A stretch of DNA of 64,000 nucleotides, taken from contig CAWKDB010000010.1 of assembly GCA_963848295.1 (NCBI GenBank), positions 2,944,001-3,008,000 of the forward strand. Direction: 5' to 3'. Made by a program: the position numbers and the translations under genes. The notes below the pieces were generated by a model. That model saw only the letters and a program-made list of their open reading frames with translations. It ran no database searches and was not told the origin of the DNA. This DNA comes from an uncultured delta proteobacterium (GTDB lineage: Bacteria; Myxococcota_A; Polyangia; Haliangiales; Haliangiaceae). Positions 7,047 through 62,605 of the stretch are shown here, in pieces (position 1 is the first letter of the stretch; each line of letters begins with the position of its first letter).

Positions 7047-7221
7047 GGTGACGCTGTCTCTATTGTCAACTTGGGTGCCGAGCGCGCCTCTGTAACTGTC
7101 GACAATCGCTTTGGGTTCTCTGGGGACGCTGTCTCTATTGTCAACTTGTAGGGTTCTTTGGGCGGTTCTTGGGGTTCTTGGGGACGCGGGTTCTTGGGGA
7201 CGCTGTCTCTATTGTCAACTT
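7047..7221 (+). repeat. 26-bp repeat family A, triplet (7047-7072, 7122-7147, 7196-7221)
   Basis: GG(T/G)GACGCTGTCTCTATTGTCAACTT x3, periods 75 and 74 bp, starting 3 bp after the gyrB stop. Confidence 0.97.
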
Positions 7222-7309
7222 GTAGGCGTTCGGGACCCGGAATGCAGGCGGCCGGCCCGGCCGATGGGCTGGCGGAACGATGACCTGCGGTCGAGGGGCT
7301 CGGCTTCGA

Positions 7310-8035
7310 TCAGCTCGCCTTCGTGCCGATCGCGACAAAGGTCGCCATGAACGGGCCACCGAACCACAACCGCGGGCCGAGACCACGAGTCACGACGCTA
7401 GCGCCGAGGCGCGTTAGCTCGGCGGCGTACTGCCTCACGAACTTGACGTCGGCGATCACGAATCGGCCGGCCGGCCTCAAGACACGGATGATCTCGGCGA
7501 GAACTTTCGCGCGCTCGTCGACCGCCGCGATGTTGTGAATCGCGAGGCTCGAGACCACGATGTCGACGCTAGCGTCGGGCAGGGTGAGCGAGCGCATGTC
7601 GCAGCTCACGAGCTGGACGCGTTCGCTCACGCCTTCGAGCTCCGCGTTGCGGCGCGTCACCGCCTCCGCGTTGCCCGACTGATCGTGCTTCGACCAGATG
7701 TCGATGCCTACCGCCTTCCCGCGCGGCACGCGTTCGGCCGCCGCGAGCAACACGGCGCCGCGACCGCAGCCGACATCGAGCACGGTCTCGTCGCCAGCGA
7801 GTGCGAGCTCGTCGAGTAGCCTCGCCCACACGACGTGCTTGCCGACTCGCGTCGAGTAGAAGAACGAGCCGCCGCACACCACGCCGATCGCGAGGCCGTA
7901 GACTCCGATCCACCGCAGGGTGTCGTCGGCCATCGAGATCCCGAAGCCGAAGGCCGCCGCACCCGCAGCGAACGCGAGCGCGAACCCGACGAGCACGTAC
8001 GGGGCGTCGTAGCCGTAGTCGCCCTTCCTCGTCAT
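7310..8035 (-). CDS. Class I SAM-dependent methyltransferase with N-terminal membrane segments
   Basis: VLDVGCGRG motif I, DIVVSSLAIHNI, LRPAGRFVIAD. Confidence 0.9.
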   Translation of the reverse strand: MTRKGDYGYDAPYVLVGFALAFAAGAAAFGFGISMADDTLRWIGVYGLAIGVVCGGSFFYSTRVGKHVVWARLLDELALAGDETVLDVGCGRGAVLLAAAERVPRGKAVGIDIWSKHDQSGNAEAVTRRNAELEGVSERVQLVSCDMRSLTLPDASVDIVVSSLAIHNIAAVDERAKVLAEIIRVLRPAGRFVIADVKFVRQYAAELTRLGASVVTRGLGPRLWFGGPFMATFVAIGTKAS

Positions 8036-8679
8036 AGCGCTCGATGTTGCCGTTCCTGTAACAGCGGCGCGACATGCTCGCTGTCGTTGAGTCGAACGAC
8101 CTGCAGATCAGAAAGCTCGCTTCCTGACAGCACGTTGAGCGTCGCCGGCGCTTGGCGAAACGTCCACACGCGCTCGAGCGGCAATCCGAGCAATTCGCAG
8201 AGCAGCACGCGATTGACCGCATCGTGCGCCGCGATCAGCGCCGTGTCGTCACCATGCAACCGCTCGCATGCGGCGGCGAGCACCGGCCACGCCCTCGCCC
8301 GCACCGCCCCGAGCGACTCGCCTCCGGGCCCAGCCGCGAAGTCTGCCGAAGGCGCGGTTCGCCACGTCTTGTACATCGCGGCATCGGCGGTCTCGACATC
8401 GCTCGCGAGCTTGCCCTCCCACGCCCCGTGACTGATCTCGACGAGCCGGTCGTCGAGCTCGAGCTCGAGCCCGCGTCCGGCCAGCACCGCCTCGGCGGTC
8501 TTGCGCGCCCGCGACAGCGGCGAGGCGATCGCGATGGCGATCGGGATGTTGGCCAGCCGCGTCGCGAGCGCGCGAGCCTGCGCCTCACCGTCGACCGACA
8601 ACGGAACATCGGTTCGGCCTTGATATCGGCCCTCCCGATTCCATGCGGTCTCGCCGTGGCGGACCAGCAGCACGTTCAT
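8032..8679 (-). CDS. Histidine phosphatase (phosphoglycerate mutase family)
   Basis: LLVRHGET, SPLSRA, GGES, AH motifs; start reassigned to ATG 8679. Confidence 0.92.
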   Translation of the reverse strand: MNVLLVRHGETAWNREGRYQGRTDVPLSVDGEAQARALATRLANIPIAIAIASPLSRARKTAEAVLAGRGLELELDDRLVEISHGAWEGKLASDVETADAAMYKTWRTAPSADFAAGPGGESLGAVRARAWPVLAAACERLHGDDTALIAAHDAVNRVLLCELLGLPLERVWTFRQAPATLNVLSGSELSDLQVVRLNDSEHVAPLLQERQHRAL

Positions 8680-8719
8680 GCGGTTACTGTAACGCGGCGA
8701 CTTGTGGTAACGCACGTCA

Positions 8720-9718
8720 ATGACCCACCGCAGTCGGATCCTGGGCATCGGTATGAGTGTCCCTTCGCGGATCGTCACGAATGACGACCTCGCGCAGAAG
8801 ATGGAGACGTCGAACGAGTGGATCGTCGAGCGCACCGGGATCGAGCAGCGTCACTGGGTCGAGCCGGGCGAGGGCGGCGCGGAGCTCGGCGCGAAAGCGG
8901 CGACCGAAGCGATCGAGCGCTCCGGCCTCGCCGCGAAAGATATCGACCTCATCATCTACGCGACGCTGTCCCCCGACTGCAATTTCCCCGGCACCGGCGT
9001 GTTCATGCAGCGTCTGCTCGGCATGCGCGGGGTTCCGTGTCTCGATATTCGCCAGCAGTGCACCGGCTTCATTTACGGACTATCGATCGCGGACGCCTAC
9101 GTGCGCACCGGGCTGTACAAGAACGTCTTGCTCGTCGGGTCGGAAGTTCATTCCACCGGGCTCGATGTCTCGACCGCTGGTCGCGATGTCACGGTGATCT
9201 TCGGCGATGGCGCCGGCGCCGTCGTGGTCGGCCGCGCCACCGACGACGCCCACATGATCTTGTCGACCCATCTTCACGCGGACGGCACCGACGCCGAGAT
9301 CCTGTGGACCGAGTATCCGGCGAGCCGCCAGCACCCGCGGATCTCCGTCGAGGCGATGTCGGAGCGACGTCACTTCCCCTCGATGAAGGGCAAGAACGTG
9401 TTCAAGCACGCCGTTCGGCGCATGCCGGAAGCGATGATGGAGGGCATGGTCGCGAACGGGTTGACGCTCGAGAAGATCGACATGGTGATTCCGCACCAAG
9501 CGAATCTCCGGATCAATCAGATGGTGGCCCAGATGATAGGGCTGCCTCCCGAGAAGATGCACAACAACATCATGAAGTACGGCAACACCACGGCCGCCTC
9601 GATCCCGATCTGCATGCACGAGGCGATCGAGCTCGGCAAGATCAAGCCCGGGATGATGGTGTGCCTCGTCGCGTTCGGTGCGGGCCTCACGTGGGGCTCG
9701 GCGTTCCTGCGCTACTGA
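8720..9718 (+). CDS. fabH: Beta-ketoacyl-ACP synthase III
   Basis: ERTGI, QCTGFIYGL catalytic Cys, FGDGAGA, PHQAN, YGNT, FGAGLTWG. Confidence 0.95.
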   Translation: MTHRSRILGIGMSVPSRIVTNDDLAQKMETSNEWIVERTGIEQRHWVEPGEGGAELGAKAATEAIERSGLAAKDIDLIIYATLSPDCNFPGTGVFMQRLLGMRGVPCLDIRQQCTGFIYGLSIADAYVRTGLYKNVLLVGSEVHSTGLDVSTAGRDVTVIFGDGAGAVVVGRATDDAHMILSTHLHADGTDAEILWTEYPASRQHPRISVEAMSERRHFPSMKGKNVFKHAVRRMPEAMMEGMVANGLTLEKIDMVIPHQANLRINQMVAQMIGLPPEKMHNNIMKYGNTTAASIPICMHEAIELGKIKPGMMVCLVAFGAGLTWGSAFLRY

Positions 9719-61062: not shown

Positions 61063-62298
61063 TTATTTCTCGAGCTCGTACTTTTGTACTAACCGGATCA
61101 GGTTTCGGCGCGACACCTTGAGGTCGTCCGCGGCACGGGTCTTGTTACCGCTGTGACGACGCATCGCCGCTCCGATCATCTTGCGCTCGAGTGCTTCGAT
61201 CGCGGCCGGGAGCGAACCAGGCTCGCCTGGCGCAGCCTCGGCGACGACGTGGTGGCGGATCCGCGGCGACAGCAGCTCCGCGCCGATGACCTGGGTATCG
61301 CCGGCGAGCACGACGAGTCGCTCGATCTCGTTCTCGAGCTCGCGCACGTTGCCGGGCCACGCGTAGCCGAGCAACTGCGCGAGACATTCTGGTGACAGCT
61401 GCTTCGCGCTCCCGCTCGTCCTGTGGCGGTCGAGGAAGTATTCGATCAAGCGCGGCACGTCATCGCGGCGCGCGCGCAACGCCGGCAGCTCGATGTTGAT
61501 GACGTTCATCCGATAGTAGAGGTCTTCGCGAAACTGACCGGCCTTGACCATCGCGCCGAGGTCGCGATTGGTCGCCGCGATGATCCGGACGTCGACCTTG
61601 CGCGTCGCGGTATCGCCGACGCGAGTGAACGTCCCCTCCTGGATCACCCGCAGCACCTTGACCTGCAGCATCGGCGACATGTCACCGATCTCGTCGAGGA
61701 AGAACGTCCCGAGGTCGGCGACATCGAACAATCCGGCCTTGTCGGACACCGCGCCGGTGAACGCCCCGCGCGCATGGCCGAACAGCTCGGAGTCCAGCAG
61801 GTTGTCGTTGAATGCGGAGCAGTTCGTCACGACGAACGGGTGATCGCGTCGCTCGGAGCGCTGATGGATCGCGCGCGCGACCAGCTCCTTGCCGGTGCCG
61901 TTCTCGCCGGCGATCATCACGGTCGACCCCGAAGGGCCGACGCGATCGATCAGCGCATACAGCTCCTGCATCGCGGGCGACGCGCCGACGATCCCGGCGT
62001 AGCTCGTGCGCTCCCCTGGCGGCTCGAGCTGCACGACGCGCTCGGCGAGCGCACTCGCAACATCAGAGGCAGCTTCGCCGAGCATGTGCTCGATCAGGCC
62101 CAGCTCGGCGGCCGACAGCTGCGGCGTGATCACCGCGAGCCCGGCGCCGTTGGGCGCCTGGGGCGACACCGCGGCGTAAGCGCAGACCTCGGCGGGCCGA
62201 TGCTCCACCAACGTCAGCTCGAGCTCGCGGCGGCGCAACACCCCGCGCACGTGGCGAAGCACGCGGAGGTCGAGACCTTGCCACCAAGGTGAGCCCAC
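61063..62298 (-). CDS. Sigma-54-interacting Fis-family activator (no receiver domain)
   Basis: [31 protein letters not shown]. Confidence 0.92.
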   Translation of the reverse strand: MGSPWWQGLDLRVLRHVRGVLRRRELELTLVEHRPAEVCAYAAVSPQAPNGAGLAVITPQLSAAELGLIEHMLGEAASDVASALAERVVQLEPPGERTSYAGIVGASPAMQELYALIDRVGPSGSTVMIAGENGTGKELVARAIHQRSERRDHPFVVTNCSAFNDNLLDSELFGHARGAFTGAVSDKAGLFDVADLGTFFLDEIGDMSPMLQVKVLRVIQEGTFTRVGDTATRKVDVRIIAATNRDLGAMVKAGQFREDLYYRMNVINIELPALRARRDDVPRLIEYFLDRHRTSGSAKQLSPECLAQLLGYAWPGNVRELENEIERLVVLAGDTQVIGAELLSPRIRHHVVAEAAPGEPGSLPAAIEALERKMIGAAMRRHSGNKTRAADDLKVSRRNLIRLVQKYELEK

Positions 62299-62305
62299 GG
62301 CCGGC

Positions 62306-62326
62306 AGTGTGACAAGCCGTCACACT
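62306..62326. promoter_or_regulatory. Palindromic operator upstream of the sigma-54 activator gene
   Basis: AGTGTGAC-AAGCC-GTCACACT perfect 8-bp inverted repeat. Confidence 0.55.
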
Positions 62327-62341
62327 CGAAGCAACTGAAAT

Positions 62342-62605
62342 GGTGACGCTGTCTCTTCTGTCAACTTGTAGATCCCGCCCTACCGGCCATCTAGCTGTCT
62401 TGATGAGAAGATTTTGGTGACGCTGTCTCTATTGTCAACTTGTGGAGAAGATTTTGGTGAGAAGATTTTGGTGACGCTGTCTCTATTGTCAACTTGTGGC
62501 GCGGTGCCATCGTTGTTTCGCGATATCGCGGGCACGCCACGATCAACCGCCTTCCCCGTCCGGAGCCGAGGATTGCGTCCGGTTGTCAAAGTGAACACCG
62601 TCCCC
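62342..62605. repeat. 26-bp repeat family A triplet (+; 62342-62367, 62416-62441, 62470-62495) plus inverted subtype B copy (62580-62605)
   Basis: Periods 74 and 54 bp; local triplication of GAGAAGATTTTGGTGA; B copy starts 2 bp after the mpaA-like stop. Confidence 0.95.

Follow-up and report, generated by a model that had tools for sequence, protein, structure and literature searches.

Dispersed repeat doublets of fixed period in an uncultured Haliangiaceae genome: probable detached ends of two resident TIRYT loci

The closest described relatives of the element treated here are the TIRtrons, named in 2013 (Di Nocera et al., PMC3733652), which have inverted ends with a GGGGWSAS motif and whose terminal inverted repeats (TIRs) also occur dispersed as singles, dimers or clusters. 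The TIRYT genes make up subclass 2.1 of the TnpA-Y1 proteins (Quentin et al. 2018, PMC6006769), which equals RAYT Group 1 (Bertels et al. 2017, PMC5581495). Subclass 2.1 ranks second in size among the Y1 HUH proteins and is found in 14.9% of species (PMC6006769); later work, in the parts of it considered here, restricts repeat populations to RAYT Groups 2 and 3. In this study, a 64,000-bp stretch of an uncultured Haliangiaceae genome (assembly GCA_963848295.1, contig CAWKDB010000010.1; G000:C10:2944001-3008000, where G000 is the source genome), hereafter the window, was analysed for a family of 26-bp repeats that stand head to tail in doublets of fixed period. With a probability of about 0.7, judged from sequence comparisons, these doublets are detached ends of two TIRYT loci of the same genome, which the enzymes likely copy and rewrite with the help of a predicted bend by integration host factor (IHF).

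Repeats were present at all 23 coordinates given in a preliminary description of the window, and the pair distances reported there (75, 74, 75, 73, 75, 73, 74 and 74 bp) proved correct when re-measured. Four of the five copies assigned to subtype B (43239, 43273, 43338 and 62580) do belong to it, but the fifth (14118) represents a further subtype, D. Six of the 18 type A copies lie on the reverse strand (15646, 15719, 33764, 33837, 35758 and 52206), those at 62416 and 62470 on the forward one, and the copy at 33837 is 25 bp long, one base short. The whole genome contains 157 type A copies with no more than four mismatches, and the proposed peak of inter-copy distances near 74 bp is genome-wide: 57 of the 70 adjacent same-strand A pairs less than 400 bp apart are spaced by 73-76 bp, where random placement would give about 0.008, and a reversed control pattern had no match. 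Type B same-strand pairs are spaced by 64-65 bp in 25 of 27 cases genome-wide, including the 65 bp of the doublet 43273/43338. A relaxed scan revealed 259 copies (A 153, B 71, C 22 and D 13) in 126 clusters, in which C pairs are 65-66 bp apart and D copies are single or inverted. The idea that 74 bp, about seven helical turns, is a special length was not borne out, since other subfamilies have periods of 54-66 bp.

The cognate genes were located by inspecting the DNA enclosed by convergent doublets separated by about 1 kb, and tblastn revealed only these two homologs in the genome, both outside the window (Table 1). The HUH nuclease that had been proposed as a possible partner of the repeats thus exists in the form of two Y1 genes, each bracketed by doublets of one subtype. 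As stated earlier for the window itself, no transposase, cas or recombinase family was detected among the 42 window open reading frames (ORFs) scanned, of 256 mechanical ones. The A and B proteins (316 and 307 amino acids, 54% identical) match NF047646 (REP-associated tyrosine transposase) at E of about 1e-10, below the curated cut-off, and weakly match Y1_Tnp or Bac_DnaA_C (PF08299 at E 0.001 on P0001); PF08299 is precomputed for several homologs, and weak PDB matches to helix-turn-helix proteins and DnaA were obtained. Residues H59, H61, Y117, N121, P122 and S138 are invariant in 29 aligned proteins, and the HuH (H59-x-H61) and YxxNP (Y117-x-H-N-N-P, YIHNNP) motifs are invariant or nearly so. 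HuH and YxxNP, a conserved serine after the core, a C-terminal Bac_DnaA_C-like domain and delta-proteobacterial prevalence are all features of subclass 2.1 in the sections of PMC6006769 and PMC5581495 considered. Assigned by motif rather than by the published profiles, the two enzymes are very probably TIRYT, or subclass 2.1-like, HUH/Y1 proteins.

The likeness to TIRtrons extends to the DNA: a Y1 gene lies between inverted non-REP repeats with a GGGGWSAS-like start, and copies of these repeats are dispersed (PMC3733652). Types A and B read GGGGACGS (7/8), and the repeats of G082, G023 and G014 read GGGGACAG or GGGGTCAG, a full fit. The claim that the family is undescribed consequently fails at class level, since TIRYT/TIRtron elements with this end motif and dispersed TIR families are already present in PMC3733652. 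Unlike our elements, those treated in the available part of that text are not said to have a direct doublet of fixed period, an internal IHF-like word or overlap with stop codons, and no myxobacterial example is mentioned there; part of the present layout may already be drawn in its Figure 9. TIR families are called moderately abundant in the same source, whereas here about 260 copies in four subtypes were found. Similarly, in the parts of PMC6006769 and PMC5581495 considered, subclass 2.1 genes were found to have no REP-like sequences beside them, whereas the present genes clearly have repeats. Among the papers listed in searches on TIRYT, TnpAREP and IHF, conversion, Kofleriaceae repeats and myxobacterial RAYTs, none was seen to describe the present layout or its rewriting in place. 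The feature is real and is a member of a named but almost unstudied class, and subclass 2.1, previously without known substrate, gains a defined candidate: a non-hairpin direct doublet of fixed period with an internal word resembling a host factor site. Two co-resident pairs of gene and repeat act as specificity controls.

In common with REPIN-RAYT systems (REP, repetitive extragenic palindromic sequence), as portrayed in the parts of PMC2817692 and PMC8266576 used here, a domesticated single-copy HUH gene is accompanied by its own family of intergenic repeats that co-evolves with it; A and B are each specific to one resident single-copy Y1 gene. The suggestion of a REP/REPIN-like non-autonomous element was apt to this extent, as the units match the ends of HUH nuclease genes and are dispersed without the gene. 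REPs are, in the same parts of the literature, GTAG-footed hairpins in inverted pairs that are read as single strands, whereas the present repeats have neither GTAG foot nor stable hairpin (folding energy -0.4 kcal/mol for A and -2.2 for B) and are arranged head to tail, and the present enzymes have an extra helix-turn-helix. Membership in REP/REPIN Groups 2/3 was rejected: a GTAG/GTGG foot with hairpin is missing, and direct doublets dominate while inverted pairs are a minority. A CGTC-type REP, of which the reverse strand has the CGTC, was also rejected; no hairpin follows it, and that family is reported without a transposase. The spacers fold no better than shuffles (z -0.7 and -0.1).

The spacers vary in sequence, as was noted before, yet they are not devoid of positional signal: among 57 A spacers, A22 is found in 52, G30 in 41, T34 in 44 and a final T in 51. 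Each end has three parts, namely an outer repeat, a 15-bp motif and an inner repeat. The motif resembles WATCAANNNNTTR, and at the best offset its score against the E. coli IHF consensus is 4.7/9 in A and 5.8/9 in B, with a background of about 2.3; genes for IHF alpha and beta (ihfA, ihfB) are encoded in the genome. A 15-bp matrix made from A spacers alone has a single-offset peak on the reverse strand of 34 B and C spacers (+6.5 bits, no more than -1.4 elsewhere), and also peaks at one offset in 41 spacers of genome G011 (+6.8) and in 26 gene ends (+5.4). Measured from the outer repeat, the ATC end of the word lies about 21-22 bp away in units of 59-65 bp and about 33 bp away in A, so that the A offset would be longer by one helical turn. 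Paired in-phase protein sites, one of the possibilities raised earlier, are plausible. An IHF site between two repeats is also described for E. coli BIME-1, in the part of that literature considered; here it would be the predicted word that takes this place. Immediately before the inner repeat, the commonest bases are CT in B and T in A. Canonical RAYTs cleave at CT, according to the portion of PMC8266576 used here, and this resemblance may be taken as a hint only. As a separate observation, the 3' half of the repeat resembles a DnaA box (6/9 by eye).

Several comparisons point to common ancestry of the spacers. Nearest-neighbour identity is 0.67 in the source genome against 0.60 in column shuffles, many right-half matches are above the null, and in one non-orthologous pair the left halves agree at 20 of 21 bases, where the null maximum was 18 in 200 shuffles, although some pairs counted as non-orthologous are unmapped orthologs. 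Paralogous A spacers are 49% identical, and spacers of neighbouring convergent doublets are weakly alike in A (mean 0.57 vs 0.49, p 0.017), the difference being not significant in B. A spacer composed of host DNA, with a pre-existing IHF site around which the transposase places one repeat on each flank at a set distance, would agree with the great diversity of the spacers and with the persistence of the IHF-like word without a repeat at two loci empty in the source genome (L124 and L137). Those surviving words may be leftovers of lost units, and the shared ancestry, the identical layout at both ends of the transposase genes and the tandem triplets with identical spacers in G011 make this explanation very improbable.

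The preliminary description had also offered dispersed one-spacer guide arrays or paired recombinase sites, in view of the repeat-spacer-repeat form and the constant spacer length. Both are largely refuted and hardly tenable now. The spacers have a fixed motif, shared ancestry and drift by substitution at orthologous loci; the window has no Rfam CRISPR repeat match, Cas1 was not found in the 85% complete assembly, and the viral contigs searched, with the A repeat as query rather than the spacers themselves, had no A repeat. Compared with the source genome, the spacers gave only short chance-level matches and one duplicate among the matches listed. Membership in CRISPR arrays was rejected on the same grounds of common motif and ancestry, missing Rfam match and the Cas1 search. 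As for recombinase sites, the genes bracketed by the repeats are Y1 transposases.

Signs of rewriting of the repeats come from the nearest relative, G104, with 75% identity at fourfold sites. The comparison covered 57 G104 clusters, mostly from the first 100 of 190 matches, and same-species metagenome contigs enlarged the ortholog set; 45 clusters were syntenic, 32 being filled in both genomes and 13 empty in the source genome. Across the 28 orthologous A doublets, 55 of the 56 repeats of G104 have G at position 13 and 50 of the 56 repeats of the source genome have T, with a difference in 50 of 56. Positions 3, 8, 16 and 17 differ 23, 7, 21 and 9 times, close to the 24.9, 8.3, 25.4 and 10.1 expected if independent, whereas position 1, tied to the host stop, retains locus memory (11 differences vs 21.7 expected). 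Spacing is indeed more conserved than spacer sequence, as had been proposed; the A spacers of these loci are 60% identical, against 75% at fourfold sites, while their length agrees within 1 bp in 27 of 28. The species-wide switch at position 13 with spacer length kept suggests, as far as sequence can tell, that repeats have been rewritten in place. Six orthologous B doublets (12 repeats) have more locus memory than A and spacers 78% identical, and the C-terminal part has diverged more in the A protein (75% vs 83% for B). Replacement at orthologous positions is also a feature of REPINs, and the idea of overwriting in place is not new, having been suggested for them in the part of the REPORTH preprint considered here (bioRxiv 10.1101/2024.10.14.618302); the non-hairpin substrate is new as far as the literature considered shows. 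With its G/T difference, position 13 offers a marker for a direct test of in-place rewriting, a process that has until now only been suggested for REPINs.

The 26-bp copies might instead have been kept alike by homologous gene conversion of the ordinary kind, free of any transposase, with the units as relics of an old expansion. This would agree with the lack of young spacer copies in the source genome and of any within-species excess of change, and mosaic spacers could come from recombination at shared repeats. Set against this, exchange of the RecA type would have little to work on in 26 bp, B copies of these genomes retain more locus memory and show near-neutral spacer divergence (78%) while A copies do not, and the repeat type tracks the resident gene in every genome checked. 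Gene conversion of this kind is accordingly quite unlikely.

If the doublets are ends of TIRYT loci, the following mechanism appears, taken as a whole, rather more probable than its alternatives, though with less confidence than the origin of the doublets. As no stable hairpin forms in the repeat, the C-terminal helix-turn-helix would recognise it in duplex form. IHF would bend the spacer so that two enzyme units, bound to the outer and inner repeats, could meet; such binding would fix the spacing and leave the remaining spacer sequence free to drift. The HUH core might then cut at the repeat edge and pass the strand on, either to another repeat or into a new site. In this way units could be copied to the 3' ends of genes, and repeats already standing could be rewritten, with tyrosine-linked strand transfer swapping repeat strands between loci, sometimes together with part of the spacer. 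Use of double-stranded sites with IHF, if true, would be a new mode for this transposase family. A wider view, which we hold only tentatively, is that TIRYT might be an HUH nuclease of double-stranded sites (with a DnaA-like helix-turn-helix and an IHF-bent two-site complex) that acts both as a genome-wide rewriter and as the source of origin-centred platforms used by the host. Rewriting in its full extent, with about 23-26 nt replaced at more than 100 standing loci, stop codons of essential genes included, is similarly doubtful at present.

The window spans dnaA-dnaN-recF-gyrB and the GC-skew minimum of the chromosome and therefore represents its repeat-densest part: per 200-kb bin of C10, 20 clusters are found at the origin, 10 in the next bin and 0-9 elsewhere. 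Orientation of the genome clusters relative to replication has no clear strand bias. Outer repeats abut or provide the stop codons of host genes, the upstream stop being located within -5 to +5 of the outer repeat in 25 of 31 A doublets with an upstream gene called within 300 bp and in 11 of 13 B doublets. Convergent gene ends are over-represented (41 of 126 clusters vs 511 of 2644 gaps). One explanation might be that the doublets are protein platforms selected by the host, for nucleoid organisation near the origin or for control at 3' ends, with TIRYT as a domesticated binder rather than mainly a mobiliser and selection, not strand exchange, keeping the copies alike. The peak at the origin, the convergent gene ends, the 32 of 45 syntenic loci filled in both species and the weak resemblance of the C-terminal domain to DnaA domain IV are in line with it. 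If selection were the sole cause, one and the same G/T change must have occurred separately at about 130 sites, and the randomised state of positions 3 and 16 across orthologous loci would not be accounted for; moreover, the catalytic residues are invariant, and 71 of 91 genomes of the genus are without the repeat pattern. As the origin of the doublets this explanation is unlikely, but as a second role it is compatible with detached TIRYT ends.

Homologous genes are present in 51 of the 91 genus genomes (a tally that includes G010). At 37 gene loci inspected (30 from the homolog search and 7 fetched), an inverted 21-nt word with at least 18 matches stands on both sides of the gene in every case, and in 24 loci a 54-74 bp doublet marks one gene end or both. 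Periods track the transposase clade: in a quick tree, genes with 65, 66 and 74 bp group together (SH-aLRT 88), this 65-74 bp group is placed among genes of shorter period, and outside it the period is mostly 59-62 bp. G053 and G011 each have dispersed doublets of the genome's own repeats (periods of 65/66 bp and 59 bp, respectively), often in units of four repeats that resemble a TIRtron lacking its gene. In 21 fetched loci of G011, direct pairs have a period of 59 bp in 41 of 42 cases; the spacers are on average 53% alike, with identical ones in tandem triplets. Repeat type matches the resident gene in G053, G011, G002, G008 and G060. The exact A pattern was absent from 40 relatives scanned, for which a relaxed pattern was needed, and the latter is missing in 71 of the 91 genus genomes. 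By eye, TIRYT genes of L027, L028, L031, L032, L038, L040, L046, L049, L050 and L051 lie between the same two host gene ends; the shared host flanks of many genus TIRYT genes suggest long vertical inheritance at one locus. In a related TIRYT clade, G096 (L019, L020) and G013 (L010) have irregular short-period clusters (32-50 bp) and no fixed doublets.

Several results weigh against detached and rewritten TIRYT ends. No clean junction was found among the 13 loci empty in the source genome. Within the species of G104, repeats changed 0 times in 1083 nt and spacers had 3 events in 1000 nt, which is no excess over the 81 events in 25,622 nt elsewhere, and no near-identical young spacer pairs occur in the source genome except for one duplicate. 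The rewriting result comes from one species pair, with a B control of 12 repeats and core positions partly fixed by the search patterns. For subtypes C and D, the assembly (85% complete) contains no cognate gene; a gene of G053 carries a repeat similar to theirs. The match to the IHF consensus is modest, and a different protein, or the transposase, may be what binds there. Regular doublets are lacking at 13 of the 37 gene loci, where the end is single, decayed or irregular, and 25 of 56 A doublets have no upstream gene call from the gene finder, which is crude.

Table 1. Coordinates of repeat units, candidate IHF words and associated genes (window numbering unless a contig is given)
Feature	Position	Strand	Remarks
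dnaA, dnaN, recF, gyrB	624..7043	+	origin region
A triplet	7047-7072, 7122-7147, 7196-7221	+	3' of gyrB stop (7043); G104 ortholog is a doublet, both repeats with the G104 variant
Candidate IHF word, first A spacer	7093..7107	+	15 bp, spacer positions 21-35; putative site
Second spacer of the 7047 triplet			low-complexity, without IHF-like word
D copy, then A doublet	14118-14143; 14166-14191 / 14241-14266	+	period 75
A doublet	15646..15744	-	period 73; converges on the 14166 doublet, with a methyltransferase gene in between; spacers of the two doublets 71% alike
A doublet	31768..31868	+	period 75; inner repeat overlaps stop codon of convergent selB (31866)
A doublet	33764..33861	-	period 73; outer copy with 1-nt deletion, 4 nt from acyl-CoA ligase stop (33865)
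A doublet	35552..35651	+	period 74
Single decayed A copy	35758..35783	-	faces the 35552 doublet; beside TPR gene stop (35794)
Three B copies (43239, 43273, 43338)	43239..43363	+	3' of serS stop (43236); last two form the 65-bp doublet
Candidate IHF word, B spacer	43320..43334	-	reversed relative to A; ends 3 nt before inner repeat; putative site
Single A copy	52206..52231	-	provides TGA stop of the ORF ending at 52227
A doublet 62342/62416 and third copy 62470	62342..62495	+	period 74, third copy 54 bp on; within local duplication
Single B copy	62580..62605	-	beside peptidase M14 gene stop (62608)
Type A transposase gene	G000:C10:2679446-2680393	-	flanked by convergent A doublets (A>>..<<A)
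Type B transposase gene	G000:C10:1101402-1102322	+	flanked by convergent B doublets (B>>..<<B)

Some loci give further details on the ends of the units. Beside the A transposase, at the 3' end of the neighbouring gene (L013 vs L024), the outer repeat stands 36 bp deeper in the host gene in the source genome than in G104 and creates a new TGA stop, which suggests that the ends erode flanking DNA. Convergent A doublets also bracket host methyltransferase genes, at G000:C10:2929054-2930203 (L014; ksgA-like by eye) and at 14166-15744 of the window (Methyltransf_4); their spacers are related (75% and 71%, respectively), which resembles a TIRtron holding a host gene. At the ortholog of L106, a unit of three repeats in G104 corresponds to a short palindromic remnant in the source genome (G000:C10:2968449; about 24449 in the window), formed by two repeat starts that face each other; it is possibly a deletion scar and was seen once. 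A possible excision-scar word has one occurrence in the genome and is not a general footprint.

The Pfam Y1_Tnp search of the genome, which missed the cognate pair, found nine genes of another type (G000:C10:3806926, 3657655, 1439500, 4550601, 261800, 3445968 and 3040575; C2:330154 and 1374309), with a Y-V/I-LNNW motif where intact and no A-D repeat within 3 kb. Six of them are close paralogs and two are apparently frameshifted or truncated. A second dispersed family of inverted repeats, built from 8-bp and 7-bp tandem words (G000:C1:12630, C10:3044618, C11:445496 and seven more clusters), has no member within 2.5 kb of these nine genes. At the locus of the source genome matching L137, an element like this second family occupies the position of the B repeat of G104, and the same IHF-like word adjoins it.

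Elsewhere in the window, a 45-bp tandem repeat (46895-47083; 4.2 copies, 99% identity) lies inside the dnaX ORF (45590-47545). An AMP-binding enzyme seems to be split over two overlapping reverse-strand ORFs (33865-34794 and 34620-35525), by a frameshift or an assembly error. Five tRNA genes and the small signal recognition particle RNA are encoded at 43449-44736, directly after the B cluster and serS.

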